A stretch of DNA of 64,000 bases. Origin: Methanobacteriota archaeon. Lineage in GTDB: Archaea > Thermoplasmatota > Poseidoniia > Poseidoniales > Poseidoniaceae. The stretch is taken from positions 5,724 through 69,723 of the forward strand of contig PBMS01000029.1 in the NCBI GenBank assembly GCA_002722695.1, in the 5' to 3' direction. The translations under genes were made by a program, and so were the position numbers. The notes beneath the pieces were generated by a model. The model was given only the letters and a program-made list of their open reading frames with translations. It was not told where the DNA came from and made no database searches. Each line of letters begins with the position of its first letter. Position 1 is the first letter of the stretch. Below, one piece after another: positions 27,842 through 55,049 of this stretch.

Positions 27842-27930
27842 GCTTCGCCTACCTTTGTCCCTATAAAGGGCTTTTTGCCCAAATGCTCAGACAAGAAGAG
27901 CGACCAAGTCGGGCACAAAGTCTTGAACAC

Positions 27931-29951: not shown

Positions 29952-30623
29952 ATGATAATCGCACCCAGCGTCCTCACGGCCAACCTTGCTGACCTCTCAA
30001 CCGACTGCAAGGAAGCCATGGCTGCCGGCCTGGATTGGCTCCACCTCGACGTGATGGACGGGAACTTTGTGCCGAACCTGACCTTCGGACCTCCAGTGAT
30101 TCGAAGCCTTCGTCAGGCGCTCGGGCCAGACGCCGTGTTTGACGCCCACCTGATGATTGAAAACGCCGAGGCTTGCTTTCAAGATTACATTGACGCGGGG
30201 TGCAATCACCTTTCGGTTCACGTCGAAGCCGTCAAGCACCTGCACCGACTGTTGAATGCCATCCGAGAGGGAGGCGCCACGGTTGGCATTGTGCTCAACC
30301 CGGCCACCCCCGTAGAGGCGGCGCTTGAAGTGTTGACCGAAGTGGACCTCGTGCTCATCATGAGCGTCAACCCCGGCTTTGGCGGGCAGTCGTTTATTCC
30401 CAACGTTGAGAGCAAGATTCGCCGCCTCGCTCAGGCCATTGAGCAACAAGTTGCGGAGGGCGGACGAGCGGTGCAAATTCAAGTCGATGGAGGCGTGAAA
30501 GCCCACAACATCGCCATGCTCCAAGACTGGGGCGTCACCAACTGCGTGGTCGGCTCGGGCCTGTTCAACGACCGGGCCAACGTTGCCGACAACCTCGCTG
30601 AAATCCACACTGCGCTTAGCTGA
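29952..30623 (+). CDS. rpe: Ribulose-phosphate 3-epimerase
   Basis: MIIAPSVLTANLADL, HLDVMDGNFVPN and the GG...VDGG C-terminal motifs are typical of Rpe. Start set at the internal Met (29952) rather than the longer ORF. Confidence 0.8.
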   Translation: MIIAPSVLTANLADLSTDCKEAMAAGLDWLHLDVMDGNFVPNLTFGPPVIRSLRQALGPDAVFDAHLMIENAEACFQDYIDAGCNHLSVHVEAVKHLHRLLNAIREGGATVGIVLNPATPVEAALEVLTEVDLVLIMSVNPGFGGQSFIPNVESKIRRLAQAIEQQVAEGGRAVQIQVDGGVKAHNIAMLQDWGVTNCVVGSGLFNDRANVADNLAEIHTALS

Positions 30624-31725
30624 TGGGGGACTGGACATTCAGATCCTCGTCGTTTCGCTGCTCTATCCGGTTCCGTTGAACCCAACGCGAGGGGTTTTTG
30701 TTGAAGATCACGTTGATCTCCTGAAAACTCAGGGTCACGACGTCAAGGTCGTGAACCCTTTGCCCCGGATGCCGCGCTACGCAGAAGCGCGACGTTCGAC
30801 CCTGATGGGCGTGGCCAAGGCGCCTCGTCGTTGGACGCACAACGGCACATCGATTCTCGCTCCCCGGTTTTTTGCGCTCCCCGATCACCCCTATCCGCGT
30901 CTTACGGCCTCCAGCGTAACCCGCCGTGCGAGGTGGGTTGAGAAACACCTGGGCTCGTGGAGACCGGATGTCATCGTGTGCCACACCCTCTGGCCCGTTG
31001 CCAATCTTGCGAAGGAACTCGCCCAGCGGTGGAAACGTCCGTGGGTGGGCGTGGTCCACGGCTACGATTTTGATGTGGGGCTGGACCTCGATGGCGTGAG
31101 CGAGCAGGTTCGATCTGCGGCCACGTCCTGCGACGTGTTGGTGTGCGCATCTCAGCGTCTTTCGGACGTGGCACAAGGTTGGTCGAACAAAAGCGCGGAA
31201 ACCATTCCGTGCGTGACCGAGATCGACCGAGACTGGCGTCGTCCGGTTCGTCCAATGAAAAAACCGTGGAAGAAAGAGCCCATTGACGTCCTCTTCCCTG
31301 CCGACCCTCGACGACCTGAAAAACGACACTTGCTCGCCTTGCAAACGGGCGAGGTGCTCGAAGAACGAGGATGGATGGTCGGCATCACCACTCTGCGCCA
31401 CCAGCCGAGGGACATCGTCTACGATCGCATGCTGACCGCAGACGTCACGCTCATCACCTCCCGCAGGGAAGCGGGGCCGTTGGTGGCGCGCGAATCTTTG
31501 CTGTGCGGAACGCCCGTGGTCAGCGTAAACGTGGGAGAAGTGGACCGGTATCTTCCGAAAGAGTGGGTCCACGGAGACGATCCGGAAGCCCTTGCCGATG
31601 GAATCGAAGACGCGCTTCGGAACGGATGGCAAGGCGAAGAAACGGTGGATGAACGGCTTGCATTCGCCTCATTTGATACGGTCAGTCAAGCGTGGACCGA
31701 GCTGCTTTCCAGCCTTGTTTCGTGA
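30583..31725 (+). CDS. Glycosyltransferase family 4 (GT-B, RfaB-like)
   Basis: N-terminal ILVVSLLYPVPLNPTRGVFV and the EX7E-type C-terminal region (TSRREAGPLVARESLLCGTPVV). There is no in-frame ATG, so the start is TTG or similar and uncertain. Confidence 0.6.
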   Translation: MPTTSLKSTLRLADGGLDIQILVVSLLYPVPLNPTRGVFVEDHVDLLKTQGHDVKVVNPLPRMPRYAEARRSTLMGVAKAPRRWTHNGTSILAPRFFALPDHPYPRLTASSVTRRARWVEKHLGSWRPDVIVCHTLWPVANLAKELAQRWKRPWVGVVHGYDFDVGLDLDGVSEQVRSAATSCDVLVCASQRLSDVAQGWSNKSAETIPCVTEIDRDWRRPVRPMKKPWKKEPIDVLFPADPRRPEKRHLLALQTGEVLEERGWMVGITTLRHQPRDIVYDRMLTADVTLITSRREAGPLVARESLLCGTPVVSVNVGEVDRYLPKEWVHGDDPEALADGIEDALRNGWQGEETVDERLAFASFDTVSQAWTELLSSLVS

Positions 31726-33136
31726 ACGCAAACAACGGCAACCCCATGACCCACCACAACGTGTTCGACACCAACCCCCCAACAACGAACAACGTGCACA
31801 CCATCACCAAGGTCCATTCGTCTCTGCGAGCCACAATCGTCGAAAATTCACCGCTCATCCACCACGATAGGCCCAACAACACGGCGGCAGAAAGGCTGCT
31901 TGCGGCCGCGCCGGCGTAGAGCTTCTGTCCCGGATTGCTCGGACCGTTCAGCACCAACACCGCCCCGAGCATGCCAGCAGCGAGAAGCACCAGAGCGATG
32001 AACAACGTGAATCGCCATGGTCGGTCCCCGGCCATCAATGCTGTGTAGGTTGGGGTCGCAAGAAGGGTCAAGCCCCAACCCGCCAAAAGAACGGTGAACA
32101 CGTCGATGGCCGATGCCCCGTATGTCCCGTCCAAATAGTCGGAGGGGAAGGCCATCGGAGCGAACAAGGTCACCACCAAATGGCCACCAAAGAGACCGTA
32201 CGGCAGTAGACCAAAACACATGTCCACTGCGTTGTTCAATTCCCTGCGATGCTTCTGAGGCTTGAATCGCGCATCGCCAAGGACGGGCAGTAGAGCGGAT
32301 CGAACCGCGGCGGGAACGACGAGCCCAGCCAACCAAGCCAGCTGTGCGACATGGAACACAGCACCCAATTCTGCGCCACCCGAGGCTGCGACCATGAATT
32401 TCTCAATCCGAACCACGTAGGGAAGAATGCCCAGCGTGATGGCAAAAGGGAGAGCCGAAGCCAAGAGTTGAGGTGTTGAAACCCAGCTCGGCCCCAACGC
32501 ATCCCAATCAACGGTTGCCTGGGTCGGTGGAGCTGTTCGCACCACCCAAAACAGTGCCAAGCCCCATCCGGCCGTGGCCCCGAACAAGAACGCACATGTG
32601 AATGCAGTGGCGGACGTGGAGCCCTGCCACGCCAGCAAGCTGTAGAGCACGACCGTACATCCGCGTTCCACCACTTTTGTAATGGCTTCCAATCGAGCTT
32701 CCCCCAACACCCGCAGACCCGACCGTGGAGCGTACGACGCAACGTGTGCAAGAGCGATGAGCCCCGCAGCGAGAAGAAGTTCAGACGGTGCCTGAACGTT
32801 CAGCCACGCCTCGGGTCGCAGCAAACCAGCGACGGCGACGAACGGCAGCACCGCCAATGCCTGCAAGCGGTACGTGCGCCACACAGCGGCGGGAACCAAC
32901 GATGGTGCTCGCGTCCCATCGCGTGCCAGCAGGGTGGGCAAACCAAGGTCAACCACGAGAAACAAGGAAGCGTACAAGTCGATGGCCAACACCATCCAAC
33001 CGTAATGCTCTGCCAACAATGCGTGCGTCAGTATGATTTGTCCGATGAAGGCCAGCGCAACTGCGAGCAAATCTGCGCCCACCAACCACGACGCGTCCCG
33101 CCCGGTGGAGGGGGTGCGATGGGTTGGCTCGGTCAT
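31682..33136 (-). CDS. Polysaccharide biosynthesis flippase-like polytopic membrane protein (Wzx/MOP superfamily)
   Basis: ~12 predicted TM helices over 484 aa. Located in the glycan locus. No soluble domain. Confidence 0.45.
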   Translation of the reverse strand: MTEPTHRTPSTGRDASWLVGADLLAVALAFIGQIILTHALLAEHYGWMVLAIDLYASLFLVVDLGLPTLLARDGTRAPSLVPAAVWRTYRLQALAVLPFVAVAGLLRPEAWLNVQAPSELLLAAGLIALAHVASYAPRSGLRVLGEARLEAITKVVERGCTVVLYSLLAWQGSTSATAFTCAFLFGATAGWGLALFWVVRTAPPTQATVDWDALGPSWVSTPQLLASALPFAITLGILPYVVRIEKFMVAASGGAELGAVFHVAQLAWLAGLVVPAAVRSALLPVLGDARFKPQKHRRELNNAVDMCFGLLPYGLFGGHLVVTLFAPMAFPSDYLDGTYGASAIDVFTVLLAGWGLTLLATPTYTALMAGDRPWRFTLFIALVLLAAGMLGAVLVLNGPSNPGQKLYAGAAASSLSAAVLLGLSWWMSGEFSTIVARRDEWTLVMVCTLFVVGGLVSNTLWWVMGLPLFAFTKQGWKAARSTLD

Positions 33137-33179
33137 GAAACAGCTAGGGTGAACGGGCTTTCAATGGATTCCACCGTTC

Positions 33180-33446
33180 TCAACCGAGGTCGTCCTCTTC
33201 CAGACCCCAAGCCCATCGACTGACGGCGCCGCGTTTGCCCTCGGACGACCCAATGCGGTGAACGAAGGGTGACTTTCGGAGGGCTCGTTGCAAAATGTGT
33301 GCGCGAACCGCCCGGCCCTCGGCTTCCAAGGCCTGAACGATTTCGGGTGTGGTGGCCGGGCCGTTGGTTCGAAGCCAGCCGACGATCCACTCGGCTTGCT
33401 CTCGAGTGGCTTTTCGTTCTTCGCTCCATCGAGACGGGCGTGCCAT
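33180..33446 (-). CDS. Small putative winged-helix protein
   Basis: 88 aa. TTPEIVQALEAEGRAVRAHILQRALRKSPFVHRIG resembles HTH-wing. Weak. Confidence 0.2.
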   Translation of the reverse strand: MARPSRWSEERKATREQAEWIVGWLRTNGPATTPEIVQALEAEGRAVRAHILQRALRKSPFVHRIGSSEGKRGAVSRWAWGLEEDDLG

Positions 33447-33481
33447 GCGGTGAGGTTGGGCACCCGAATCAAGAAGATTTG

Positions 33482-34102
33482 TCAGTCCTCGTCGTCGAAC
33501 TTCAAGTCTCGAGCACGCTGCATGGCGGCGTCATCGGTGAACCAAAACGTCGGCGTGGGCCCGAGGTCTTTGTCCCACCGTTGGACCGCTCGTGCGAACA
33601 TTTCCCCATCGGCGTATTTTTCACACCAGCGAAGGAACCATTCGGCCTGTTCCTGCATCGCCTCGTCGCCCTCGGACTGTCGACGAAGCATTTCAGCTTG
33701 GAGAGCGGTTATCATCATCCAGTTTGGTGTCAAGGCGTAAGTGACGTAGGGGTTTCGTTCCATGTCCACGCTGCGCCATTCCGTCCACAAGGAGAAGACC
33801 TGGTCGTAGAGGTAGCCGATGGTGAGGACACCCAGCATGACGGTCAGGAAAATTGACAGCAAACCAAAGTACGTTGCAGGTACACCGGCGATGGTGTCGT
33901 TGAAGCAAAGAGCGTCCGCGCAAGAGGCTTCGAATCGCCACCGAACGTAGGGCCAAACAAGCAGGGTGATGGTGGTGCCCCACAACAAGAGGCCAACCAC
34001 GGCCTGGGATTGTTGCATGCGCCAATACTGACGCATCACCCACTTTCGGAACAGCGAAGGAGAACCGTCTTCCGTCATAACAGCAACCTTCCCAAGCGAC
34101 AT
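33482..34102 (-). CDS. Hypothetical membrane protein
   Basis: Two or three hydrophobic helices (VVGLLLWGTTITLLVW; FGLLSIFLTVMLGVLTIGYL) and a C-terminal acidic soluble region. Confidence 0.3.
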   Translation of the reverse strand: MSLGKVAVMTEDGSPSLFRKWVMRQYWRMQQSQAVVGLLLWGTTITLLVWPYVRWRFEASCADALCFNDTIAGVPATYFGLLSIFLTVMLGVLTIGYLYDQVFSLWTEWRSVDMERNPYVTYALTPNWMMITALQAEMLRRQSEGDEAMQEQAEWFLRWCEKYADGEMFARAVQRWDKDLGPTPTFWFTDDAAMQRARDLKFDDED

Positions 34103-34154
34103 TCACTTAACAAACAAACCCATGGATGGGAGGTTGCAAAAGACATTTTGAGTT

Positions 34155-35129
34155 TTACACCCCGTCCTTCAACCACAATCTTCCGGCGAGGCTCTCCCAC
34201 TCAATGGATTGCGGGTGGCATGAATTGTGGTAGTTGGTGAATTCACCAAAGTACCACCTCCCATCGGCCCGGAACAAGTCCACTCGCGTGTAATCGATGT
34301 CTTCGGCCAAGCGTTCGACGATGTTGACAAGTTCGGTCAACCCATCCTTGCCGAGAAGGGACACGATTTCAGCGGGCGTGTTCTCTTCGCTCCATCGAGG
34401 GTTGGTTTGGTGAATGCGCTGCCCGCCGGGCGTGTAGATGGACTGGGAATGATTGGTCATGCGCCCTGTGTCGTATTGGATGAACCCCACCTTTCCGTGG
34501 AACACATGGACCTTCCAGTCGTTGGGCAATCGATTGTTGTCGGTGAGCAACTCTTCGATCATCACGCCGCGAGGCTGAATGTTCGCAGCTCCCCATTCAA
34601 GCGGAGCGGGGAAGTCCTGCCGTAAACACCATCGCAAGGATCGCTCGATCCGCCATTTTGGCCACGGTTTACCGTCTTGGTCCCGCCCGTTGCGAATGAC
34701 GCGGTATCGGTGCGCCCTGCGCGAAAACAAACGAAGTTTTCGAGAAACGTTGGCGAGCGGTACGGGCCCGTTGTCCATGATGAACAGAGCGTCTCCCGAC
34801 CAGTGGTTGGTTTTGATGACACATCGATCGGGCAGATTGTCCCAATCAATGCTCACGTCCTCCGACCAGTGGTGAAGTTCGGTGAGGTGGCAGACGTTTT
34901 TGGATTCGACCAGAGCCCGAGAGCGGTGTTTGTCCTCCATGAGCGGAAGGAGAGGATTGCGGTCTTCCACGCACCGTTTGAGAAGAAGTTGGCTGTAATG
35001 GCCCGCCTTGGATTCGTCGAGAGCGTGCCACGGGTGGACACCGCCTGGAAGTAACTCGGCCATCGATTGCGCGTGCGAGCGCGCCCGTTTTAGGCTTGGC
35101 ACCGTTCGTCCGGCGGACGGACAAATCAA
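34155..35129 (-). CDS. TupA-like ATP-grasp enzyme (PF14305 family; carboxylate-amine ligase associated with teichuronopeptide-type glycans)
   Basis: QLLLKRCVEDRNPLLPLMEDKHRSRALVE ... LPDRCVIKTNHWSGD matches the characteristic TupA-like N-terminal and KxxHGSG segments. The real start may be the internal Met near 35063. Confidence 0.65.
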   Translation of the reverse strand: MICPSAGRTVPSLKRARSHAQSMAELLPGGVHPWHALDESKAGHYSQLLLKRCVEDRNPLLPLMEDKHRSRALVESKNVCHLTELHHWSEDVSIDWDNLPDRCVIKTNHWSGDALFIMDNGPVPLANVSRKLRLFSRRAHRYRVIRNGRDQDGKPWPKWRIERSLRWCLRQDFPAPLEWGAANIQPRGVMIEELLTDNNRLPNDWKVHVFHGKVGFIQYDTGRMTNHSQSIYTPGGQRIHQTNPRWSEENTPAEIVSLLGKDGLTELVNIVERLAEDIDYTRVDLFRADGRWYFGEFTNYHNSCHPQSIEWESLAGRLWLKDGV

Positions 35130-35455
35130 GCTTGACGGCCAGCGTCAAACATTTCTCGAAGACTTCCGTCTTGCAACATCTCAAGCGCGATGTCGGACCC
35201 GCCGATGAGTTCGCCGTGAACGAAGACTTGAGGCATGGTTGGGAAATCCGACCAGGCGCAAATGGAAGGGATGGCTCGGGCATCGGAGAGGACGTTCACC
35301 GAGGCAAATTCCTCGCCGAGGCTCTGCAAGACCTGAGCGGCGCGGTTGGAAAACCCGCACTGAGGCTGATTCGGGCTGCCCTTCATGAACAGCACGATGG
35401 GGTGGTCGTCAACGAGGCTTTGCAATTCTTCTGGGCTCCAATTCATGGTGTTCAC
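35126..35455 (-). CDS. Monothiol glutaredoxin (CGFS type, Grx4/GrxD family)
   Basis: QPQCGFSNRAAQ active-site motif. ~109 aa. Confidence 0.8.
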   Translation of the reverse strand: MNTMNWSPEELQSLVDDHPIVLFMKGSPNQPQCGFSNRAAQVLQSLGEEFASVNVLSDARAIPSICAWSDFPTMPQVFVHGELIGGSDIALEMLQDGSLREMFDAGRQA

Positions 35456-35775
35456 TCCTTGTTTTTCATGATGCGGCGGATGTGGACGCCTTGACCCCCG
35501 CCGTGCGGGTCAAAGGCCGTGTTGCCCGCCGTTTCGGCTTGGGAGGGCGTCATGCACTTGAGATCGAGTGCGTGAATGGGATGGGGGATGTGCTGGCCCA
35601 TGACGGCGAGCACCTGCTTTTGGCGCTGAAGAGGGCGGACGCCCTCGAAGGTCTCGGAGATGATGCGCACGTGGAAGTGGTCGCCAGACCCGTGAAGATC
35701 GATGACCTCGACGGTGGCTTCGGGCACGGCCTTCAACACCTCTGCCTCAATCCACGCCGCTTCAACCATGTGCAC
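35452..35775 (-). CDS. BolA-family protein
   Basis: ~107 aa. The HFHVRIISETFEGVRPLQRQKQV pattern is typical of BolA. Overlaps the Grx start by 4 nt, so the two are translationally coupled. Confidence 0.65.
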   Translation of the reverse strand: MHMVEAAWIEAEVLKAVPEATVEVIDLHGSGDHFHVRIISETFEGVRPLQRQKQVLAVMGQHIPHPIHALDLKCMTPSQAETAGNTAFDPHGGGQGVHIRRIMKNKE

Positions 35776-35831
35776 GCCTCATGAGTTCCTGTGTGAGCAC
35801 CTTCTTTGAACCTGCGCCCGAATCTCTTGCG

Positions 35832-37079: not shown

Positions 37080-37171
37080 CCTTTCACCATGCCCATGGTT
37101 GGCTACGCCCTCTCGTCTGGAAGCCGTGGTATAACAGTTCGGAACATAGTGAACACCGGGAGGCCGTTCTC

Positions 37172-38479: not shown

Positions 38480-38653
38480 GTCGGCGTTTGAGTCCAGCGA
38501 AGCAAAGCGCTGACTCCATCCCATGTGCTATCCGAATCGGTTCATGTTATCAACTCAACCTATCAATGGACGGTGGAATATGCAAAACACCGAACGAATC
38601 CCCTCTCCGTTGAGGAACGGTCCGGTTTAGTCATATAGGAACGAAACGAGGCT

Positions 38654-46557: not shown

Positions 46558-49500
46558 TGAACCCCCTCCTCACCATTCCAAAATGAACCCAGGTATTTGT
46601 CGGCGTATTCAGTGTACCCGTTTCCTCCATGAGGCGTGGGGGTAAACTCTCCGAAAACCGCCCCTCTGCTGGTGGCGAACATGTCGATTCGCATGTACAT
46701 TCCTAGAGCGGCTCCTATGGTCCGCACGGATTCAATCATTTCTTGCCAACAATCTGGCCTCTGAATTGGATCTTGACCTTGATCCCTTTTTTCCATGATC
46801 TTCCCTGGCATCAACTTGAAATTTTCATCGTAATATTGATGTTCATTGAGGCTTTTGTTAACTTCAGATTTTCTCAAAGCCACATGCACCATCGCAATTT
46901 CTTCACCAAAGCAATAGAATTTGAAGTCCCGGGGTAAACCGTCGCTGAGTTGTTTAGGTTCTGGTTCAAGCAGTTCTTCAATCATGATTATTGGTTGATT
47001 TTGACGAATAAACTCATCCTCTGATAGTGCACGAACCAAATGCTCTCTTGTATACGCTTGGTGAGTCAAAATATCCATACCGTCCTTCATGCAATAGACA
47101 TTGTTTGAGTTCCACCCCTTTTCCGGCTTAATGACAAAGTTACGGGGCAATTGTGCCAGTTCAGGTATGTCTTGGCATTCCTTGCCCTCCCAATACAAGA
47201 CTGGGACCTTCAACCCCAAATCCTCCACGAAACTTCGCCCGGCAAGTTTCGGGGATAGTTTCTTTTGCCAAACTGGTTTTTTTGCCTTCCACCAATCGTG
47301 GTTTCGTTTCCTTATCATCTCTGAAAAAAGGGGCATGCCCGTTTCCCAAACATGATGTTTAGATTTCATCGCATCCGGAACCTCGAAAGGACGAATAGAC
47401 AACCTTCGAGGTAGGTAAGGTGAGGCGATTCCGGATTTGATTTTTTTGTGCCATAATCGGAACGAGCAGTGATGATTCAATCTGTGTCCGGACACAGAAC
47501 GCCAAGAAATGTGGAACGGCCCTCCACCTGTCAACGAACTGTTATGCAGCATCATGAACATTGAAGGTACGCTCATTCGTAATCGTCGCTCGTTTCCATA
47601 ATACGCCTCTATACGCTCAATGTACTCCGTATCTGCACCAACCCGAAGAGAATCAAAATATCCGATTTCGTCCACAACCTCCCTCCGTATGAGTAGGGAA
47701 ATACACGCCATTCTCAGAGCCCCAATTCCCCTGAATTCGACATCAGAGTTTTCGTCGATTCTGAAATAATCGTGAGTAATTCCTACCGCCTCAGGGTTTG
47801 AGCTCAGTGAATCAACCTGCATCTCAATACGTTGTGCATGACAGTAATCGTCGCTGTCCATGAAACCTATGAACGTCCCATTTGCTTGTGATATTCCGAA
47901 ATTTTTTGCGAGATATGTCCCCCCGTTTTCATTCATTTGAAACACGCGAATTCGGTCATCGGTTTGCTTCAATGTTTGAAGATACGTAAAATTATCATCA
48001 GGTGAACAGTCATCGACAATCAACAGCTCAACATTTCGGTATGTTTGATTGAGAATCGAAGCTATCGCTGAATCCAACAATGGATCTCGTTTGTACGTAG
48101 TCATGATAATGGACACAAGACGGTCATCGTCCACGAACTTGCTCACATCTGTGGAAAGATATCGCGGCGTTATGGCGTTGACTGGTGATGTGGATGTCAC
48201 CGGAGCGAGGCCATGTAATTCCAGCATGTTGTTGATGTGCTTAATTTGCATTTGGGCTTGTCCTGCATTTTTTTCGATTTGAGAGGCAGTGATGTACACA
48301 TCGTTGGATTCTGGCCAGCGGACCAAGCATTTTGATATGGTATTGCGTGCTGTTTGATGATTTCCCAGCCAGGAGTTCACCAAGGCAAAATAGAGTTGAC
48401 TTCGCTGATTGTTTGGGTGATGGTTTAAGCAGGTTTGAACAATTTCCAATGCCAAATCAAAGTCCTTCAAAACGCTCAAAACAAAATTTAATCGGGCAAA
48501 TTGATGATTTAGGTTATTTGGAAATTCTTTAGTTGCCTTCGTAATTTCAAACGAATACTTTTCTTCGGACCATATTTTAATTCCACATTTCAGCCTTCGC
48601 TGCAATGCCGATTGATGATTTTTGTTGATTTCCAACACCCGCTCAAACATGCGGATTGCGTCTTCCAACTTCCCCATGGACTCGAGAGCTATGCCTTTAC
48701 GCATCAAAAAAGAGATGCTCTCCGAATGTGAGGCTAAAGCGCCATCAAGTATGTCAAGCGCACTCGCCGCATCCCCTTCCTCCAGCATTCTCGCTGCCAT
48801 TAAATCGGTTTCAAGCAAAGTGCCTTCGATGAGTCCCAGGAGGTGTTCCGCTTCCTCCTTTTGACCTAATTCACATAACTTTAGATACGAATTACGTATT
48901 GTTGCCTTTGCGTCGACACCAAGCTCAACCAACCGTTTGCTTGCAAGTAAGATGTCCTGGACTGAACCATGGTTGATTGCAGCGTTAGCAAATCTCCGCA
49001 GGTGATACAATTTTACCTCGCCCAATTCATTGAGTCGATGGTAAGCGTCCAAAGCAAGCTGAGGCGTTTTCGTTCGATACCCAATTTCAGTCAAAATCTC
49101 CAACATCTGTAGGTCGTTTGGATCTTCCTGAAGGACCACAGAGGCAATTTGTGCTGATTCATCAAATCGTTTTGCGTGTTTCAGCCGCTTTGCCAGCGAA
49201 CGTTTTTTGGAAAGTTCACCGTCGATTTTTCCAAGATAATTCACCCATAAATTATGAGCCATTTCTATCTGCCCGAGGGATTCACACACCTGTCGCGCAA
49301 ACATCAACGTCGACTCGTTCACAACCTCTCGAGACATTAGCGAGTTGAGGAGTTCAATTCCTCCCTCAACATCTCCAGATTCAAAATGTTCTTTTGCTTG
49401 GACAAAGATAGGAAAGGGGATGTCCATGTCCCAGTTCGATTGGAGAAAAAAAGCCCTGCATGATTGCTCATGCCAAAATGTCTCAAACATCCTCGAGAGC

Positions 49501-49850
49501 AATTCTTCATCGGTGGATGTCCAAGTGATTCGGGAGGCAGCGCGCATCACGATTGAGCAATCGCCGCTTATGCATCCTGCGTGTATCAGACGTCGAAGAT
49601 ATTCTGGCTTTGGGTTAGAGGCGATGGCTCGTTGCATGAGGACGACGGCTTCTCCATGGCGAGCTGTGTTCATGAACAACCTCGAAAGGACATCTAACGC
49701 CCACAAATCGTTCGCATTATCACTGAGCATTGCCTCGAGGAAAGGCTCTGCCTCGTCGTAATTTTTGCTGTTGTAGTGGCGTCGTGCCTCGTCCTTGTTT
49801 GAGGTGGTGTTTTTCTTGAACGGCCACCTCATGAACAAATGGTCCTGCAT
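46554..49850 (-). CDS. Fusion of an N-terminal TPR-repeat region, a central GT2 glycosyltransferase and a C-terminal TupA-like ATP-grasp domain
   Basis: TPR-like helical repeats over ~550 aa. GT2 is LVSIIMTTYKRDPLL...VDDCSPD...MDSDD. The C-terminal KLAGRSFVEDLGLKVPVLYW...NFVIKPEKGWNSNNVYCM...FGEFTPTPHGG matches the TupA-like ATP-grasp. Confidence 0.6.
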   Translation of the reverse strand: MQDHLFMRWPFKKNTTSNKDEARRHYNSKNYDEAEPFLEAMLSDNANDLWALDVLSRLFMNTARHGEAVVLMQRAIASNPKPEYLRRLIHAGCISGDCSIVMRAASRITWTSTDEELLSRMFETFWHEQSCRAFFLQSNWDMDIPFPIFVQAKEHFESGDVEGGIELLNSLMSREVVNESTLMFARQVCESLGQIEMAHNLWVNYLGKIDGELSKKRSLAKRLKHAKRFDESAQIASVVLQEDPNDLQMLEILTEIGYRTKTPQLALDAYHRLNELGEVKLYHLRRFANAAINHGSVQDILLASKRLVELGVDAKATIRNSYLKLCELGQKEEAEHLLGLIEGTLLETDLMAARMLEEGDAASALDILDGALASHSESISFLMRKGIALESMGKLEDAIRMFERVLEINKNHQSALQRRLKCGIKIWSEEKYSFEITKATKEFPNNLNHQFARLNFVLSVLKDFDLALEIVQTCLNHHPNNQRSQLYFALVNSWLGNHQTARNTISKCLVRWPESNDVYITASQIEKNAGQAQMQIKHINNMLELHGLAPVTSTSPVNAITPRYLSTDVSKFVDDDRLVSIIMTTYKRDPLLDSAIASILNQTYRNVELLIVDDCSPDDNFTYLQTLKQTDDRIRVFQMNENGGTYLAKNFGISQANGTFIGFMDSDDYCHAQRIEMQVDSLSSNPEAVGITHDYFRIDENSDVEFRGIGALRMACISLLIRREVVDEIGYFDSLRVGADTEYIERIEAYYGNERRLRMSVPSMFMMLHNSSLTGGGPFHISWRSVSGHRLNHHCSFRLWHKKIKSGIASPYLPRRLSIRPFEVPDAMKSKHHVWETGMPLFSEMIRKRNHDWWKAKKPVWQKKLSPKLAGRSFVEDLGLKVPVLYWEGKECQDIPELAQLPRNFVIKPEKGWNSNNVYCMKDGMDILTHQAYTREHLVRALSEDEFIRQNQPIIMIEELLEPEPKQLSDGLPRDFKFYCFGEEIAMVHVALRKSEVNKSLNEHQYYDENFKLMPGKIMEKRDQGQDPIQRPDCWQEMIESVRTIGAALGMYMRIDMFATSRGAVFGEFTPTPHGGNGYTEYADKYLGSFWNGEEGVQ

Positions 49851-50053
49851 TGGGGTTATGGAGATGTTGTATTAATTTCAATCTGAAGGTCGTTTCCAAA
49901 GCCATCAGACCGGTCCCGAATCTTCTGCAATGATATGCGGAATTATGAACACGAACCCCTGTATATCTGCGGATTTCGATAGCACCATGCAATGGGTAGG
50001 AACTCTGGCATGGACAAGCGAAAAATGATGAACAGGTTGCGATTACGGATAGC

Positions 50054-51013
50054 ATGCCAACTCTCTTGATCACTGGGGGTGCAGGTTTCATAGGTGGGCG
50101 CACCGCTTCACTGGCAATTGAACAGGGGTGGAGAGTGAGGGTTCTGGACAACCTTTCCACTGGTTTGCAATCCACTTGCACGAGGTTGAAAAATCAAGGT
50201 GCAGATGTGTTGGTCGGTGATATACGAGACCCAAAAATGGTTGATTCTGCCGTGAGAGGCTGTGACGCTGTGGTTCACCTTGCAGCACAGGTTTCTGTTC
50301 CGTATTCGGTCGACCACTCAGACGAAAATTACGCAATCAATGTGGGAGGTACCGCTTGCCTTCTGAAAGCATGTCGAGACAACGATGTCTCACGCTTTAT
50401 CATGGCGTCAAGTGCTGCGGTTTATGGATCGTGCGAGACTCTCCCGCTCAGAGAAGAAGATGCTGGGGCCTTTCAATCCCCCTACGCAGAATCGAAACAC
50501 ATCAATGAAGACATGATGAAAGAAGCGAGGCAGAAAGGTATGGAAACAATAGCCCTGCGTTTTTTCAACGTGTATGGGACAGGGCAAAGAACGGACGGGG
50601 CCTATGCGGCAGTTGTTCCGAAATTCATTGAACTAGCAACACAAGGAAACGCGCCAATGATTTATGGGGACGGCCATCAAACACGAGATTTCATCCATGT
50701 TGATGACGTTGTTAACGCCGTTTTGATGTTGGCAAGAGAGAAATGGAATCCTGCTTACGCTCCTGTATACAACCTATCAACAGGTATTGAGGTCTCCCTC
50801 CTGCAGCTCATCAAAAAAATCCAAGGTGTGTTAAGTGAAATCTCACCAACCACAAATCGACCTGCTCCGGTACACACCGACGGCCGCACTGGCGATATCC
50901 TTCGGTCGGTAGGTTCGAGTGCTCGAATTCAAAAGGACACCGCATGGAGACCTAGTATCTCCCTGGAGAGTGGAATACGGCGTCAAATAGAGGACGCTCT
51001 CAACCGAACGTGA
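50054..51013 (+). CDS. NAD-dependent nucleotide-sugar epimerase (UDP-Glc/GlcNAc(A) 4-epimerase-like, extended SDR)
   Basis: TGGAGFIGG Rossmann motif, YxxxK context (YAESKHINE) and the usual length. Confidence 0.85.
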   Translation: MPTLLITGGAGFIGGRTASLAIEQGWRVRVLDNLSTGLQSTCTRLKNQGADVLVGDIRDPKMVDSAVRGCDAVVHLAAQVSVPYSVDHSDENYAINVGGTACLLKACRDNDVSRFIMASSAAVYGSCETLPLREEDAGAFQSPYAESKHINEDMMKEARQKGMETIALRFFNVYGTGQRTDGAYAAVVPKFIELATQGNAPMIYGDGHQTRDFIHVDDVVNAVLMLAREKWNPAYAPVYNLSTGIEVSLLQLIKKIQGVLSEISPTTNRPAPVHTDGRTGDILRSVGSSARIQKDTAWRPSISLESGIRRQIEDALNRT

Positions 51014-52116
51014 GCGTCATGGAATTGCTCTGGTTCACTGGACGCTCAATGAGCGATCTATGCTCATGCACTCAACGCGCTTTAATCGCTGGATTGTTGA
51101 AAAATGATGTGCTGATCACCTACGTCAATTCAGACGCAAGCGTGAACATTGAAAATCAAGCGTTCACCCACGTCGGCTTAACTCACCGTGCACGTCTCGG
51201 TTTCAAGGCACGCACGCTCGGGAAAATGATGGCGTTTTGGCTGTCGTCAACCGATGTAAGCGACCGCGCTGTGGCGTTGGTTGAGTGGCGCATTGCTCAG
51301 CACATTGTTCCTGTCCTCTCGGACAAAGGTATCCCATGGGCCTTGATGGACCGCAGCCCACCGGCAGATCCTGGTTTGTTGGGTCGTTTGCAGTGGAGGT
51401 CGTGGTCGCAAGCGTGGAAACTGGCCAAACGTGTGGATGCTCCTGGATTGGTTGTTTCTGCCGCACATCAGGCCTTTGTTGCGCAGAAAACCGGACATCA
51501 GCGAGCCACGGTGATTCAGGCCGGTGTGGATCTGAACCGATTCGAACCTGCGGAAAAGCAATCCACGTTCACGATGGTCTACCACGGGAGATTGGACCGG
51601 CACCGTGGATTGTTGGCGTGCGCAATGTTGGCCCAAAAAGCACGGAGTGAAGGTCTTGAGGTGGACATGATGTTCATCGGTGAGGGGGATCTTCTCCCTG
51701 CTTTGGAACGATTGGCGGACGCGAACGATTTCATTCATGTTCACAAACCGATGAAGCAAGAAGAGTTGGCACCGCTGCTCGGATCGTGTCATCTCGGCTT
51801 GTTGCCCATGCCAAAACGGACGGCCTGGATGCTGGCCAGTCCGCTCAAACGCAGTGAATTCCTTGCGTCAGGACTGCCTGTGTTTGGCATCGATCATCAA
51901 GGTCACAGGCTCGCCGGTGTGGAAAGCGATTGGTTTACGTTGGCTCCCCAGGAGGATTTTCATGCAGACGGTCTGGAGGTTTTGCGCCGCCACATGGGCA
52001 CGGAACGCCAACACTCTGCCGCGGCACGAACGTACGCAGAGAGCAACCTTGGCTGGTCGATTTCGGTCGAGGCGTTGATGGGCGTGTTGGACGATTTGCA
52101 TCACAGCGAATCGTAA
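51010..52116 (+). CDS. Glycosyltransferase family 4 (GT-B)
   Basis: The C-terminal FIGEGDLLPALERLAD ... LLPMPKRTAWMLASPLKRSEFLASGLPVFG has a GT4 nucleotide-binding-domain pattern. Confidence 0.55.
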   Translation: MSVMELLWFTGRSMSDLCSCTQRALIAGLLKNDVLITYVNSDASVNIENQAFTHVGLTHRARLGFKARTLGKMMAFWLSSTDVSDRAVALVEWRIAQHIVPVLSDKGIPWALMDRSPPADPGLLGRLQWRSWSQAWKLAKRVDAPGLVVSAAHQAFVAQKTGHQRATVIQAGVDLNRFEPAEKQSTFTMVYHGRLDRHRGLLACAMLAQKARSEGLEVDMMFIGEGDLLPALERLADANDFIHVHKPMKQEELAPLLGSCHLGLLPMPKRTAWMLASPLKRSEFLASGLPVFGIDHQGHRLAGVESDWFTLAPQEDFHADGLEVLRRHMGTERQHSAAARTYAESNLGWSISVEALMGVLDDLHHSES

Positions 52117-53084
52117 ACCAGTGCCCACTGTTTTTGCACCTCATCAACGGCGTGAGACGCCACAGAATCAGCAAGTTCACCGGTCGAACCTGGTCGTTCA
52201 AGCAGAGCGGCCAAGGTTGAAACCCATGCTTCGACGTCATCGTGAGGTGCATAAGCCACCGCATCGGGCAGACCCGCCACCCGGTCGCTCACGCAAACGG
52301 GTAGATCAGCGGAAAGGGCTTCAAGCGCCACCATGGGTTGGCCTTCGTAGGCAGACGGGACGAGGAGAACGCTCGCACGTGCGAGCAGTGAGGCTTTTTG
52401 TTCGTTTGAAACCCAACCAGGAGAATTGATCCAAGGGCGGTTCTCCTCGCCCCAACCCGTCATCGTGAGGCGAAGGGATGGATGGGACTGACGCAATCGT
52501 TCTGCCACTTCGATCGCAAAGGCATGACCCTTGACAGGGTCGTTGCGTCCCAAGAGGAGAAGATGGTGTTCGTCTCGTGCATGCGCTGGATGAGCCGATG
52601 ACGGCGGGAGTGGGTTGACGATGGCGGTCAACGGGCCAATGCGAGGTTCAAGTCGCTGCCGCCACACCTCAGAAAGGACAACCGGTTGAATGCCAGCAGA
52701 GGTCAGGATTGTCCTCACGGTCTCGACCCGACGTGCACCCCCTGCATCGAGCCACGCATCGAACCGACCCGAGTGAAGGTGAACGACCACGGCGACACCC
52801 TCCCGTCTGGCTACCGCAATCAGACGCGCTTTGCGACGCCATGACCAATCGGCAGCGACGTGAACATGCACCACATCGGGTCGTTGTGGTGCATCTGTGC
52901 AGCGGCGGTTCAGTTCGCGGCGCGCGCGCCGATAAGCGCACCATTTTGCCCACAGGCCACCGTCGCTGTGCGAGGACAAGAGCGTGGCTTCCCACCCTTC
53001 TGGAGGGTGGTCGGCGAGGGTTCGCATGACGGTGGCCATGCCCCCAGGGCTGTCGCATGGTCCGACGTGAAGCACCCTGCGCAT
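52101..53084 (-). CDS. Glycosyltransferase family 4 (GT-B)
   Basis: The N-terminal VLHVGPCDSPGGMATVMRTL and C-terminal SAYEGQPMVALEALSADLPV are GT4 (EX7E-like) motifs. Confidence 0.6.
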   Translation of the reverse strand: MRRVLHVGPCDSPGGMATVMRTLADHPPEGWEATLLSSHSDGGLWAKWCAYRRARRELNRRCTDAPQRPDVVHVHVAADWSWRRKARLIAVARREGVAVVVHLHSGRFDAWLDAGGARRVETVRTILTSAGIQPVVLSEVWRQRLEPRIGPLTAIVNPLPPSSAHPAHARDEHHLLLLGRNDPVKGHAFAIEVAERLRQSHPSLRLTMTGWGEENRPWINSPGWVSNEQKASLLARASVLLVPSAYEGQPMVALEALSADLPVCVSDRVAGLPDAVAYAPHDDVEAWVSTLAALLERPGSTGELADSVASHAVDEVQKQWALVYDSL

Positions 53085-53130
53085 GGCTCATCCACCACCT
53101 TCGCCGTCATGAAGTGGTTGGCAAAACCGC

Positions 53131-54414
53131 TTGGTCGCACCTCTGAATGGAGGAGAACCTAAGGGGAAGCGATGTCGGATGGAGGCCATGGTCGTGGTCC
53201 CTGCCGCCATCGAGGGGGTCGCTCTTGCTGTCGCCGCCGTACCGTTCCTGCAACACCGATGGGACATGCATCGCTGGGAACGCGATCATCAAACCGGATA
53301 CGGACCGAAAGGAGAAGGTCATGTTGAACCGCTGACGGTGCTGCTGCCCGTGTGGAACGAAGCCGTGGTGATCGATGAGAAACTGGCCAACCTCGCCGCT
53401 CAAAACCTCAGTTTCAACCTCCTCATCGTCGACTCGGCATCCACCGACCAAACGGTCGGTCGAGCGCAAGTCTGGCTTGAAAAGCATCCGGATGCGTTTG
53501 CGTCTGCGGAATTCATTGAGATGTCGGAACGAAAAGGGAAAACAGCAGCGGTGATTCAGGCCCTCAAACACATCGGGACGACCGCTAAGGGTCTGGTGTG
53601 CATGACCGATGCCGATGCCATGATGGAACCGGGTGTTCTCCAGCGGATGATGCAGTGGTTTGCCGACCCCATCGTCGGGGCCGTTGGCGCGGTCCCCAAG
53701 CGCTTGGAAGCACGGCGGGAGGAGCGCCTTCACCGTTCAGCTTGGGAAGCCATGCGGGTGGCTGAGTCCTGTGTGGACAGCACCCCGTTTTTGGAAGGTT
53801 CCTGCATGATGTGGCGCCCGTCATGTCTGGCGATTGAAGATCTCCACCCAACGGCCAACGCTGACGATGCACAAATTGCGACGTCCATCCGCTGCCGTGG
53901 ATGGCGAACACTGACCGACCCTCTGGCCACCTTCACCGACGCTGCACCCACATCCGGGAAAAGTCAACGTCGGCAGAAAGTGCGACGTGCACAGGGGCTC
54001 CAACGGTTGCTTGTCCGTGAACGAAAACGAGCAACAGCGAAAGGGCAAGGCGTATTTGGACGCATTTTTTGGCGTCAGCATCACTTTCACATCACGGCGC
54101 CTTTGGCGTTGACCGTCGCCCTCATCAGCGCCGTTCTTCGATGGGGGTTCATTGCACTGTACGGATGGCCGGCAACGTTCACGCTTGCCAACAGTGTTCA
54201 TCTCGGGTTCTGCATGTTGGAGGCTGCCTGCACGATGCTGTGGTGGCGGGGCCGTCAAGGCAAATCAAACGGCCCGCTGTCTCTGCCCGGCCAGTGGCTG
54301 GCCAGCATGGAGATACTCGGGCGCTCGTTGATCACGACTGCAACCGGACGTTCCCTTCACATGTGGGAACAGCACACCGACGTGCGTGAACGGTTGATGA
54401 GTTTAGAAGATTGA
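53131..54414 (+). CDS. Membrane-embedded GT2 glycosyltransferase (processive synthase-like; NodC/cellulose-synthase-like)
   Basis: DxD context LLIVDSASTD and CMTDADAM, a Q(x)xRW-like region, and several C-terminal TM helices. The start may be the internal Met near 53179. Confidence 0.6.
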   Translation: MVAPLNGGEPKGKRCRMEAMVVVPAAIEGVALAVAAVPFLQHRWDMHRWERDHQTGYGPKGEGHVEPLTVLLPVWNEAVVIDEKLANLAAQNLSFNLLIVDSASTDQTVGRAQVWLEKHPDAFASAEFIEMSERKGKTAAVIQALKHIGTTAKGLVCMTDADAMMEPGVLQRMMQWFADPIVGAVGAVPKRLEARREERLHRSAWEAMRVAESCVDSTPFLEGSCMMWRPSCLAIEDLHPTANADDAQIATSIRCRGWRTLTDPLATFTDAAPTSGKSQRRQKVRRAQGLQRLLVRERKRATAKGQGVFGRIFWRQHHFHITAPLALTVALISAVLRWGFIALYGWPATFTLANSVHLGFCMLEAACTMLWWRGRQGKSNGPLSLPGQWLASMEILGRSLITTATGRSLHMWEQHTDVRERLMSLED

Positions 54415-54424
54415 AGAAAAGGCC

Positions 54425-54450
54425 CCTCCGGCGGCCTTGGCCGCCGGAGG
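54425..54450 (-). terminator. Perfect GC-rich hairpin (12-bp stem CCTCCGGCGGCC/GGCCGCCGGAGG with a 2-nt loop), followed on the minus-strand RNA by UUUUCUUC. Probable terminator of the pilin gene.
   Basis: Read directly from the sequence between the convergent GT2 and pilin gene ends. Confidence 0.45.
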
Positions 54451-54501
54451 CGCGTTGTACAGGTGTGAAACCTGGATGGTGTGGCTACTCAGCGATCGAG
54501 A

Positions 54502-55005: not shown

Positions 55006-55049
55006 ATTTTTGTCCTCCTTTCCCCGTTGGGGGTAGGCCTGCCTATGTC

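Follow-up and report, generated by a model that had tools for sequence, protein, structure and literature searches.

Replacement-type flexible genomic islands ('glycosylation islands') of marine and halophilic prokaryotes have been described, for example, as GI4 of Prochlorococcus and as the O-chain islands of Alteromonas (PMC8430335). The locus reported here resembles them in that it is a chromosomal slot between conserved genes filled with glycosyltransferase arrays for an outer glycan, its content is replaced between related lineages when conserved or semi-conserved genes at its edges recombine, it interrupts short-read assemblies, its GC content is below that of the genome, and it carries no integrase. 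It differs in that replacement occurs between species-level lineages rather than co-occurring strains, near-identical contigs sharing one version.

With bacterial loci for ABC transporter-dependent O-antigens and group-2-like capsules (Wzm/Wzt or KpsMT) the locus has in common a Wzm/Wzt pair, a low GC content, large multi-module glycosyltransferases, the absence of a Wzy polymerase from the island, transporter genes that are conserved beside a variable, serotype-specific type of region, and contents swapped between related lineages. In contrast to the bacterial systems, the Wzt (239 aa) lacks the C-terminal carbohydrate-binding domain, and no chain terminator, primer glycosyltransferase (priming phosphoglycosyltransferase) or ligase was recognised in the window (see below). 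Since the host is an archaeon, the carrier is presumably dolichol-based, and an outer membrane, Wza, KpsD and KpsE are absent.

In Campylobacter jejuni HS:2 the protein Cj1438 is a single polypeptide in which a linker connects a GT2 domain to a TupA-like ATP-grasp domain, the latter amidating the C6 carboxylate of GlcA on the growing chain of an ABC-exported capsule (PMC11800379). By its domain order we liken to Cj1438 a 1,098-aa enzyme of the locus, which also combines GT2 with TupA-like ATP-grasp within a locus for a uronic-acid-using, ABC-exported polysaccharide; it differs by an additional 545-aa N-terminal TPR region, and genes for serinol-phosphate or ethanolamine-phosphate were not recognised in its surroundings.

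The window, by which we mean the whole stretch of 64,000 nucleotides analysed, contains the archaeal markers PolD, PriL, an archaeal pilin and HVO_0163-type HTH domains, and the loci closest to the island locus are those of Poseidonia and Poseidoniaceae MAGs. The host is a Poseidoniaceae archaeon (MGIIa; Marine Group II, Poseidoniales) and the island is chromosomal. A keyword search found no description of the locus in the main text of MGII genomics papers and of an MGII review. We consider it probable that the locus is a replacement-type flexible genomic island for an ABC transporter-dependent surface-glycan pathway, in which the cassettes distal to wzt are exchanged between lineages. As such, it is a good example of an already known kind of island, not a new kind. 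Its features are collected in Table 1.

Table 1. Features of the surface-glycan locus and its surroundings (positions in the window)
Feature	Position	Strand	Basis and remarks
GT4 (firm)	30583-31725	+	Pfam; left arm, native GC
Wzx-like membrane protein, 484 aa	31682-33136	-	sub-threshold Pfam match and hydrophobic segments; left arm
206-aa membrane protein	33482-34102	-	left arm, native GC
Stand-alone TupA-like ATP-grasp	34155-35129	-	Pfam; left arm (30583..35129)
Glutaredoxin, BolA, cysteate synthase	35126..37208	-	Pfam Glutaredoxin, BolA, PALP; not known glycan genes
Nucleotide-sugar 6-dehydrogenase	37172..38524	-	three UDPG_MGDP_dh domains
Compositional island (low-GC core)	38551..51050	.	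12.5 kb, 8 genes
Wzm-type ABC-2 permease	38654..39514	+	Pfam ABC2_membrane 5.5e-14
Wzt-type ABC ATPase, 239 aa	39511..40230	+	Pfam ABC_tran 4.5e-24
GT-B paralog 1, 397 aa	40227..41420	+	similarity to 449-aa GT-B
1,096-aa GT2-GT2-PP-loop enzyme	41395..44685	-	
PP-loop motif SGGIDS, aa 806-811	42253..42270	-	
181-aa protein	44678..45223	-	GxGxG-like 'VIEFGSGDGS' stretch
GT-B glycosyltransferase, 449 aa	45208..46557	-	N-terminal amphipathic or hydrophobic segment
1,098-aa TPR-GT2-ATP-grasp enzyme	46554..49850	-	Pfam
SDR nucleotide-sugar 4-epimerase-like enzyme	50054..51013	+	Pfam Epimerase 1.4e-53
GT4-like (weak)	51010-52116	+	Pfam/NCBIfam; right arm, near-native GC
GT4 (firm)	52101-53084	-	Pfam/NCBIfam; right arm, near-native GC
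Membrane GT2	53131-54414	+	Pfam/NCBIfam; right arm (51010..54414)
Archaeal pilin gene	54502-55005		

The preliminary description had seen here a contiguous 24-kb supercluster with four GT4 genes and at least five GT2 domains. The block is interrupted at 33.2-37.2 kb by the genes for glutaredoxin, BolA and cysteate synthase (TIGR03844, 410 bits, over the cutoff of 324.9) and by two small membrane or unknown ORFs, and the counts come down to two firm GT4 genes plus a weak GT4-like one and to four GT2 domains. In the left arm the genes for GT4 and the Wzx-like protein are syntenic in most relatives, the stand-alone TupA gene and the 206-aa gene being found in some. That the Wzx-like protein is a flippase, as first assumed, agrees with its at least eight hydrophobic segments, but the Pfam match is below threshold (E = 1.6e-3). 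The right arm has kept its position but is fast-evolving (36-45% identity versus ~75% for the neighbouring MetAP).

The Wzm/Wzt exporter was correctly recognised from the start: besides the Pfam matches, the permease matches the NCBIfam model for the galactan export permease Wzm/RfbD (5.7e-16, under the equivalog cutoff) and the ATPase those for Wzt/RfbE (2.6e-56) and TagH (4.4e-45). With 74-83% identity in the nearest species having the same transporter type, Wzm forms a conserved edge of the island. Both predicted GT-B paralogs are also there; the 397-aa protein, with no match in Pfam or NCBIfam, shares 31% identity with the 449-aa one in its N-terminal 206 aa (E = 8e-22), is diverged in its C-terminal half and reaches 27-44% identity in relatives. 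The 181-aa protein has no match in Pfam, NCBIfam or PDB; its gene comes after the GT-B gene also in L005, L019, L062 and L066, and one reading of its sequence would be a methyltransferase-like role.

The largest proteins of the island are two multi-domain enzymes. The 1,098-aa enzyme is composed of TPR (aa ~20-545), GT2 (aa ~576-800) and TupA-like ATP-grasp (aa 868-1088) modules, the last of which, together with the stand-alone gene of the left arm, makes up the two TupA-like domains announced earlier. Its GT2 module matches heparosan synthase PmHS2 (8.6e-39) and also chondroitin synthase, in domains that we take to be the uronate-transferring ones. One relative encodes a single 1,632-aa Wzt-TPR-GT4 fusion. 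The 1,096-aa enzyme contains two GT2 modules (aa ~41-290 and ~319-530), a ferredoxin/SPOR-like module (aa ~621-696) and, as expected, a PP-loop ATPase (aa ~731-1096), which is QueC-like, includes DUF6395 and has a predicted amidating role.

This PP-loop module shares the SGGxDS motif with QueC (7-cyano-7-deazaguanine synthase) and the Cap9 PP-loop ATPases, a family that uses ATP to activate a carboxylate, which ammonia or an amine then attacks. Across 50 homologs S, G, D and S of SGGIDS never vary, and at least 90% have the middle G. Four C-terminal cysteines (C427, C437, C440 and C443 in segment numbering; C-x9-C-x2-C-x2-C) are spaced as in QueC. Overall similarity to QueC is marginal (Pfam QueC E = 0.34). 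The module is larger (~365 aa), shares its polypeptide with two GT2 domains and a ferredoxin-like one, has no deazapurine context, and its C-terminal half is classed by Pfam as DUF6395.

The nucleotide-sugar dehydrogenase and the 4-epimerase, both named in the preliminary description, were confirmed by their domains (Table 1). The dehydrogenase (TIGR03026, 386 bits) has native GC, is 66-93% identical in 160 loci and is the conserved left anchor of the island. Models for UDP-HexNAc 6-dehydrogenases outscore those for UDP-glucose dehydrogenases, UDP-ManNAc dehydrogenase giving 265 bits and TviB 251 versus 187 for AglM and 157 for TuaD. The epimerase, whose gene is the last of low GC, scores 182 bits with GalE (under the cutoff) and 144 with TviC; it adjoins the dehydrogenase in seven genome loci (L023, L043, L046, L047, L051, L053, L056) and in further metagenome loci. 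The pair, adjacent in many relatives, resembles TviB/TviC of the Vi antigen and WbpO/WbpP of Pseudomonas (UDP-GalNAcA route). The scores are, however, far under the equivalog cutoffs (TviB 251 versus 592, TviC 144 versus 760), the dehydrogenase is equally good as a UDP-ManNAc dehydrogenase, and some relatives hold a UDP-GlcNAc 2-epimerase instead. The identity of the sugar is uncertain because neither enzyme reaches the NCBIfam equivalog cutoff of any specific family. The enzyme set fits the earlier proposal of a uronic-acid polymer with ABC transporter-dependent export, the dehydrogenase favouring UDP-HexNAc models.

The genes could alternatively belong to an archaeal N-glycosylation (Agl-type) machinery attaching a short oligosaccharide to S-layer or pilin proteins rather than making a polymer or capsule. 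The conserved left arm holds a Wzx/AglR-like membrane protein and a GT4, there are weak NCBIfam matches to AglG, AglJ, AglM and Agl16, an archaeal pilin gene lies in the window, and haloarchaeal Agl clusters are also variable. We nevertheless regard this as unlikely for the locus as a whole, since the ~1,100-aa multi-module TPR-GT fusions resemble the enzymes that polymerise the glycan in ABC-dependent O-antigen and capsule systems, the GT2 is closest to heparosan and chondroitin synthases and AglB is absent from the window. To our knowledge the lipid-linked glycan of Agl pathways is flipped by a Wzx-type flippase and not by Wzm/Wzt. The two readings are compatible: the conserved arms may serve N-glycosylation and the island the polymer.

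That the core is AT-rich had been noted by eye for ~38.6-50 kb. Windows of 1 kb agree: GC is 0.478 (47.8%) for 38,551-51,050 and 0.582 (58.2%) for the remaining window, the island maximum (0.504) lying below the outside minimum (0.528) without overlap. This drop is far beyond chance. With change points near 38,540 and 51,130 the left limit stands, but on the right low GC extends to ~51.05 kb and includes the epimerase gene; the AT-rich string quoted earlier is located at 39,601. GC3 also differs, being 0.46-0.57 in the 8 island genes versus 0.58-0.80 in 29 others (Mann-Whitney p = 5e-8), and the tetranucleotide distance of the island is z = 5-10 above background. After correction for GC, tetranucleotide usage is mildly off that of the host (r = 0.85-0.91 versus 0.93-0.96), a difference that fits exchange within the clade, short of proof.

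Comparison of about 160 related genome and metagenome loci showed that across Poseidoniales the left flank (STAND-Rpe-GT4-Wzx...Grx-BolA-dehydrogenase) and the right flank (epimerase-GT4-like-GT4-GT2-MetAP-Sua5) are syntenic, whereas what lies past Wzm/Wzt has been replaced or is lacking, depending on the species, so that block synteny is not conserved in all relatives. Flank proteins are 75-95% identical, island proteins 27-73% or missing. The variable regions of 14 relatives carry different glycan genes, namely those for GT4, GT2, UDP-GlcNAc 2-epimerase, DegT, MBOAT, hexapeptide acetyltransferase and 4,6-dehydratase. Nucleotide homology to the nearest species is continuous across wzt as far as about 40.15-40.37 kb, and patchy beyond. 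In L098/L109 the interior of the island is 90-98.6% identical and the flanks are 70-78% identical, with a recombination breakpoint within wzt and an internal replaced patch of 1 kb, which is direct evidence of cassette transfer. Ends of MAG contigs within 300 bp of the dehydrogenase were found in 18/80 cases on the island side and 7/80 on the other, a modest excess, part of which could stem from low coverage. The earlier reading as a variable glycan island is thus upheld. The replacement is seen between species-level lineages. Hypervariability among strains, by which classical 'metagenomic islands' are recognised, did not show in the contigs recovered for this species, all of which, from many samples, are 99.6-99.9% identical with the same island (they were retrieved by way of island-linked proteins, which biases the sample).

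The AT-richness had suggested a horizontal acquisition as one possibility. A recent acquisition from a foreign donor of lower GC, by an integrative element or as a bacterial capsule locus, would explain the sharp 10-point GC drop and the tetranucleotide distance, and the best named matches are bacterial families (Wzm/Wzt, TuaG, EpsD, heparosan synthase). Yet in 41/41 relatives (core GC 0.42-0.64) the same locus is found with wzm/wzt in the same position; a deficit of 7-9 points is present in 41/41 and 28/28 relatives, and the GC of the island follows that of the host (r = 0.87, slope 0.8). The low GC can therefore not be read as a mark of recent foreign acquisition. Also against it are sister-species Wzm/Wzt that are 74-88% identical where the transporter type is the same, near the flank values, and the near-host oligonucleotide usage after correction for GC. 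Homologs of the island proteins come overwhelmingly from marine Thermoplasmatota metagenomes, the lists being consistent with a position of the genes within clades of Poseidoniales that lack a bacterial sister group. No tRNA, flanking or att-like repeat, integrase or transposase was found in any scan; the island is not a mobile element. We hold such an acquisition to be improbable.

Still less credible is the idea that relaxed selection has left a non-functional, decaying remnant, as the shift of GC3 to AT and the diverged half of the 397-aa paralog might suggest: 8/8 ORFs are intact, two of them ~3.3 kb long, neighbouring genes share 4-16 nt at their ends, a pattern known from translationally coupled operons, the catalytic motifs do not vary among 50 homologs, the models are confident, and copies of the locus from different oceans are 99.6-99.9% conserved and free of frameshifts. 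An assembly or binning chimera of two organisms, conceivable for metagenome-type data in which several related contigs are assigned to bacterial MAGs and contig ends cluster at 41.06-41.10 kb, has a negligible chance, the question being settled in practice by independent assemblies from different samples that span the left junction (L001-L004) and by L085-L094, including a 99.6-kb contig, that span the right one (each 99.6-99.9% identical), and by dozens of other species with the same arrangement.

For the replacement-type island we propose the following pathway, in which the nature of the product, the acceptor (a lipid, an S-layer protein or a free capsule) and what the amidating modules act on are inferred. 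The conserved 6-dehydrogenase and the island 4-epimerase would supply UDP-hexosaminuronic acid, from which the two ~1,100-aa enzymes (with the island's GT2 modules, of the four established here) and the GT-B paralogs, whose fold is likewise established, would assemble a polymer, carried by a lipid, on the cytoplasmic side. As the chain grows, its uronate carboxylates would be ATP-activated and then amidated by two unrelated GT-fused modules of established fold and motif, the TupA-like ATP-grasp as in Cj1438 and the QueC-like PP-loop (DUF6395). Wzm/Wzt would export the finished chain, the TPR domain probably docking the synthase to the exporter. The product is probably an amidated hexosaminuronic-acid polymer exported by the ABC transporter. 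The comparison of relatives shows that wzm/wzt and the flanking dehydrogenase are conserved and serve as anchors for recombination, that lineages swap the genes past wzt as cassettes, and that low GC is a long-standing property of the locus across the whole order.

The window has a background of about 58% GC, and its composition profile shows one trough only, the low-GC core of the table (47.8% GC versus 58.2% in the rest of the window). In 1-kb overlapping windows all 23 inside the core (maximum 0.504) lie below all 100 outside it (minimum 0.528), and the change is steepest near 38,540 and 51,130. The left edge falls inside the 129-nt spacer separating the divergent dehydrogenase and wzm genes, the right edge directly past the epimerase gene. 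The eight genes in between, here called the island, have a GC3 of 0.46-0.57, as compared with 0.58-0.80 in 29 others examined, with no overlap (p = 5e-8). The tetranucleotide distance of the island to the remaining window is 5-10 standard deviations above background; when corrected for base composition, its oligonucleotide signature is fairly near that of the host (r = 0.85-0.91 versus 0.93-0.96). The AT-rich core that the preliminary description had noticed by eye is thus borne out by sliding-window GC and tetranucleotide analysis, and the AT-rich string quoted there is located at 39,601.

Features of the glycan region and its surroundings, in window positions
Feature	Position	Strand	Remarks
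Run of large putative surface/signalling proteins	16180-29502		Upstream of the glycan region; a thrombospondin type 3 repeat protein (898 aa), a protein with BsuPI and HTH domains (876 aa), a WD40 protein hydrophobic at its ends (1,141 aa) and a STAND NTPase
Cysteate synthase	35832-37208	-	NCBIfam equivalog, 410 bits (cutoff 325)
Nucleotide-sugar 6-dehydrogenase	37172-38524	-	
Low-GC core (island)	38,551-51,050		
Wzm		first	ABC-2 permease
Wzt		first	ATPase, 239 aa, without carbohydrate-binding extension
397-aa protein		first	Follows wzt
1,098-aa protein		opposite	TPR-GT2-TupA-like ATP-grasp; first gene of an operon with overlapping gene ends
449-aa protein		opposite	Second gene of the operon
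181-aa protein	44678-45223	-	Third gene of the operon
1,096-aa protein		opposite	GT2-GT2-DUF6395; fourth gene of the operon
SDR epimerase			Last island gene
End of unbroken nucleotide homology	~40.15-40.37 kb		Comparison with nearest species
Recurrent contig ends	41,061-41,097		37-nt span inside the 397-aa gene
Inverted match to paralog	45210-45224		15 nt, imperfect
GT4-like protein	51010-52116		Weak match
Ten contig ends	51.4-54.9 kb		Near-identical assemblies
Spurious ORF	54437-55036	+	199 aa
Archaeal type IV pilin	54502-55005	-	Pilin_N, 2.6e-10
IGHMBP2-type SF1 helicase	58947-61172	-	TIGR00376, 401 bits

The glycan locus contains an ABC exporter pair, Wzm and Wzt, whose genes overlap by 4 nt, and two multi-glycosyltransferase proteins of about 1,100 residues that are soluble, without predicted transmembrane segments. 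The 449-aa protein has two Rossmann-like domains structurally similar to GT-B enzymes (GT1/GT28-like). Over its N-terminal 206 residues the 397-aa protein is 31% identical to it (E = 8e-22) and is a paralog of it in that part. The 181-aa protein accompanies the GT-B gene in relatives and is without a family match; 'VIEFGSGDGS' and 'LLIIDGPP' in it recall, on our own reading of the sequence, SAM-methyltransferase motifs I and IV. PDB and Pfam sequence searches gave nothing significant for the 397-aa, the 181-aa and the Wzx-like proteins. A Wzy-like multi-TM protein was not found within 38.5-51 kb, nor did Pfam, applied to most, not all, window ORFs of at least 100 aa, reveal a phosphoglycosyltransferase (PF00953/PF02397), AglB or a ligase; the priming enzyme or ligase may be encoded elsewhere.

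The TupA-like ATP-grasp domain (PF14305, cutoff 25) scores 74.4 bits in the 1,098-aa protein (residues 868-1088) and 77.3 bits in a 324-aa protein. In the former the architecture is GT2-linker-ATP-grasp, and the GT2 domain is most similar to the solved heparosan and chondroitin synthases. In Cj1438 of C. jejuni a GT2 is joined to a TupA-like ATP-grasp; the latter amidates glucuronate at its C6 carboxylate while the capsule chain, which is ABC-exported, is growing (PMC11800379). The island protein is alike in that a GT2 is fused to an ATP-grasp, in a locus predicted to make a uronic-acid polysaccharide.

SGGIDS (residues 806-811) and C-x9-C-x2-C-x2-C both lie in the C-terminal 365 residues of the 1,096-aa enzyme; across 50 homologs the majority of the motif positions, among them S, G, D and S of the former, do not vary, and the others are at least 90% conserved. 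Sequence searches were insufficient to identify this PP-loop domain, the best E value with PDB sequences being about 1 and the Pfam QueC match (E = 0.34, 17 residues only) not being significant. Identification required structure prediction, in which the fold resembles that of solved family members and SGGIDS falls at strand 261-265/helix 270-278, the first strand-helix turn of the Rossmann-like domain. The module belongs to the superfamily only distantly and is no QueC orthologue, and Pfam DUF6395 corresponds, as modelled, to the C-terminal half of a PP-loop ATPase of QueC-like type. With 524 cluster representatives out of 1.84 billion, DUF6395 is a small family, whose members either stand alone or are fused to GT2. 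In enzymes of the QueC family a carboxylate is adenylated and then attacked by ammonia or an amine. As a glycosyltransferase-fused QueC-like module DUF6395 is a modestly novel enzymological lead.

The dehydrogenase next to wzm is, by model scores, better described as a UDP-ManNAc/UDP-GlcNAc 6-dehydrogenase than as a UDP-glucose dehydrogenase: the scores for UDP-ManNAc dehydrogenase (265) and TviB (251) exceed those for AglM (187, cutoff 670) and TuaD (157, cutoff 700). It passes the subfamily model TIGR03026 only and does not reach the equivalog match for UDP-glucose 6-dehydrogenase (Ugd/AglM). Between it and BolA/Grx, three genes from the stand-alone TupA-like ATP-grasp, lies the gene for cysteate synthase, which is present in many relatives, not in all. 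In methanogens cysteate synthase serves the synthesis of coenzyme M, yet the present host is not a methanogen, and no literature linking the enzyme to MGII was found. Cysteate could be a candidate amine donor for uronate amidation.

In the preliminary description the whole region was a contiguous 24-kb glycan biosynthesis and export supercluster with four GT4 genes and five or more GT2 domains. The surface-glycan island with its ABC exporter holds. The contiguity and the counts had to be given up: glutaredoxin, BolA and cysteate synthase separate the left-arm glycan genes from the dehydrogenase, two GT4 genes are firm and a third is weak, and four GT2 domains were detected. The Wzx-like protein (484 aa), with at least eight hydrophobic segments in a crude hydropathy scan, reaches 18.4 bits in Pfam, as against a cutoff of 28.2, and has no NCBIfam or PDB sequence match. 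Adjoining the right arm is the archaeal type IV pilin gene, the true gene at the place of the spurious ORF. The helicase further downstream gives partial matches, far under the cutoffs, to the helicase parts of the antiphage PLuB and ProA models.

The proteins of the window were mapped onto 80 genome and 80 metagenome loci around dehydrogenase homologs. The island occupies a fixed chromosomal slot, the same anchor genes recurring on both sides in Poseidoniales genome and metagenome loci. On the left, Poseidonia relatives have the order STAND NTPase, Rpe, GT4, Wzx-like, Grx, BolA and dehydrogenase, at 75-95% protein identity; on the right the order epimerase, GT4-like, GT4, GT2, MetAP and Sua5 is kept, with the glycan genes 36-45% identical versus about 75% for MetAP. 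In most MGIIa relatives wzm and wzt adjoin the dehydrogenase (74-88% identity in the nearest species with this transporter type). The genes past them vary: the nearest species either lacks a given island protein or has it at 27-73% identity, as compared with 75-95% for the flanks. In 14 relatives the variable regions contain GT4 arrays or GT2, UDP-GlcNAc 2-epimerase, DegT aminotransferase, MBOAT, acetyltransferase and 4,6-dehydratase. A third group (L023, L043, L046, L047, L051, L053, L056 and others) has the epimerase beside the dehydrogenase and the transporter on the opposite side. Synteny comparison thus showed conserved flanks and a block that is not itself conserved. Nucleotide homology to the nearest species runs unbroken through wzt, and beyond its end only conserved domain cores are shared; the boundary of sequence replacement, at ~40.3 kb, thus differs from that of GC, at 38.55 kb. 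A second variable slot, on the other side of the dehydrogenase, was seen in relatives (L005:9691-12265 and L020:5544-13464). Its genes are for MBOAT, GDSL-like and DegT aminotransferase proteins and for others of no known kind; loci of MGIIb type have the ABC transporter in that slot.

Direct evidence that such content is transferred comes from two metagenome loci, L098 and L109. They differ by 22-30% in dehydrogenase, cysteate synthase and wzm (flanks 70-78% identical), and are 90-98.6% identical over 8 kb of the island interior, with the switch point inside wzt and an internal 1-kb patch replaced again. This is the pattern of serotype-cassette exchange via recombination in conserved edge genes.

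The preliminary description had taken the AT-richness to suggest an acquired or hypervariable island. Variable content between lineages is what we found; low GC as a mark of recent acquisition is not. In 41/41 relatives the GC content of wzm/wzt is below that of neighbouring core genes (mean -6.9 points), and in 28/28 the following 6 kb are also lower (mean -8.8 points). Over hosts of 42-64% GC, the GC content of the island rises with that of the host (r = 0.87, slope 0.8). A deficit that keeps pace with the host is thus a long-standing property of the locus, and not a sign of recent import of foreign DNA into this genome. Low GC is usual at bacterial O-antigen and capsule loci. MGII genomes range from 34.5 to 62.7% GC (PMC6461757). 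Insertion by a mobile element or prophage was rejected: there is no tRNA, direct and inverted repeats at the edges are of chance length only (14-33 nt), and all Pfam/NCBIfam scans were negative for integrase, transposase and viral domains. An assembly chimera was ruled out because independent contigs cross both junctions.

The host is evident from genes in the window for the PolD large subunit, the primase large subunit, archaeal ribosomal proteins and RNA polymerase, HVO_0163-type HTH domains and the archaeal type IV pilin. In a species-dereplicated genome collection the nearest loci are from MAGs named Poseidonia or Poseidoniaceae, i.e., MGIIa. Contigs 99.6-99.9% identical come from many marine metagenomes including Tara Oceans and from MAG GCA_003672845.1, and by exact-protein look-up every near-identical contig recovered has the same island. 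Look-up of the dehydrogenase, the epimerase and a 347-aa flank protein led to the same island only; three other proteins were unrecorded, probably due to start codons called differently. A metagenome scan with the dehydrogenase, which yielded the L098/L109 case, found no locus above 89% identity and hence no alternatives from the same species.

Four independent assemblies from this population have contig ends in one 37-nt stretch inside the 397-aa gene, where no repeat accounts for the breaks; the sole nearby feature is the inverted match to the paralog. Ten ends of near-identical assemblies fall in the right arm and just past it (see table). In species-level MAGs, contig ends at most 300 bp from the dehydrogenase number 18/80 on the island side versus 7/80 on the other. 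The fragmentation fits microdiversity; low coverage could contribute. Seven loci with MGII-type synteny and a 73-75% identical dehydrogenase (L031, L045, L050, L055, L065, L069, L077) are placed in MAGs named Opitutia, Rhodospirillaceae, Rhodobiaceae, Salinimicrobium or Gammaproteobacteria, probably because the island region, atypical in composition, was mis-binned.

The analysis itself shows the exporter pair, the operon-like overlaps of gene ends and the folds and motifs of the domains. From these we infer that a hexosaminuronic-acid-containing chain would be assembled in the cytoplasm by the glycosyltransferase modules, its carboxylates would be amidated by the ATP-grasp and PP-loop modules, and Wzm/Wzt would export it. 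At L077:4138-9036 (-) a single 1,632-aa ORF of a relative combines a Wzt-type ABC ATPase domain, TPR repeats and GT4, which argues that TPR-bearing synthases dock on the exporter; by this Rosetta-stone reasoning the fusion is a hint that the TPR-glycosyltransferases may do so.

The finding of the preliminary description is real and its interpretation largely right. A wider proposal, which we hold to be tentative and rather doubtful, is that Poseidoniales export via the ABC transporter a surface polymer made by glycosyltransferases fused to two unrelated carboxylate activators. One of these, the hitherto uncharacterised QueC-like DUF6395 module, would turn uronates of the chain into uronamides or other amides and would be, in the QueC/Cap9 lineage, the first member directed at a polysaccharide and independent of deazapurine; the neighbouring cysteate synthase might provide the stand-alone ATP-grasp with a sulfonated amine, giving a sulfonate-bearing archaeal glycan, and cassette swapping would set recognition by viruses and grazers.

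Replaceable islands for surface glycans that include an ABC exporter are a category well known from marine bacteria and haloarchaea (PMC8430335) and as such expected, not surprising. For this MGII locus no description was found in the main text of the MGII genomics literature, the 2015 Thalassoarchaea paper being outside the search. That paper reportedly discusses genomic islands. Marine Group II archaea are among the most abundant microbes of the surface ocean; they are uncultured, and we know of no experimental knowledge of their cell surface. The locus provides a comparably placed marker of surface-glycan types across the order and offers an explanation for a recurrent assembly break in MGII MAGs. 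It cautions that low GC at glycan loci is a standing property and no signal of recent transfer, and it makes the testable predictions that the GT2 + ATP-grasp and GT2 + QueC-like fusions are uronate amidases.
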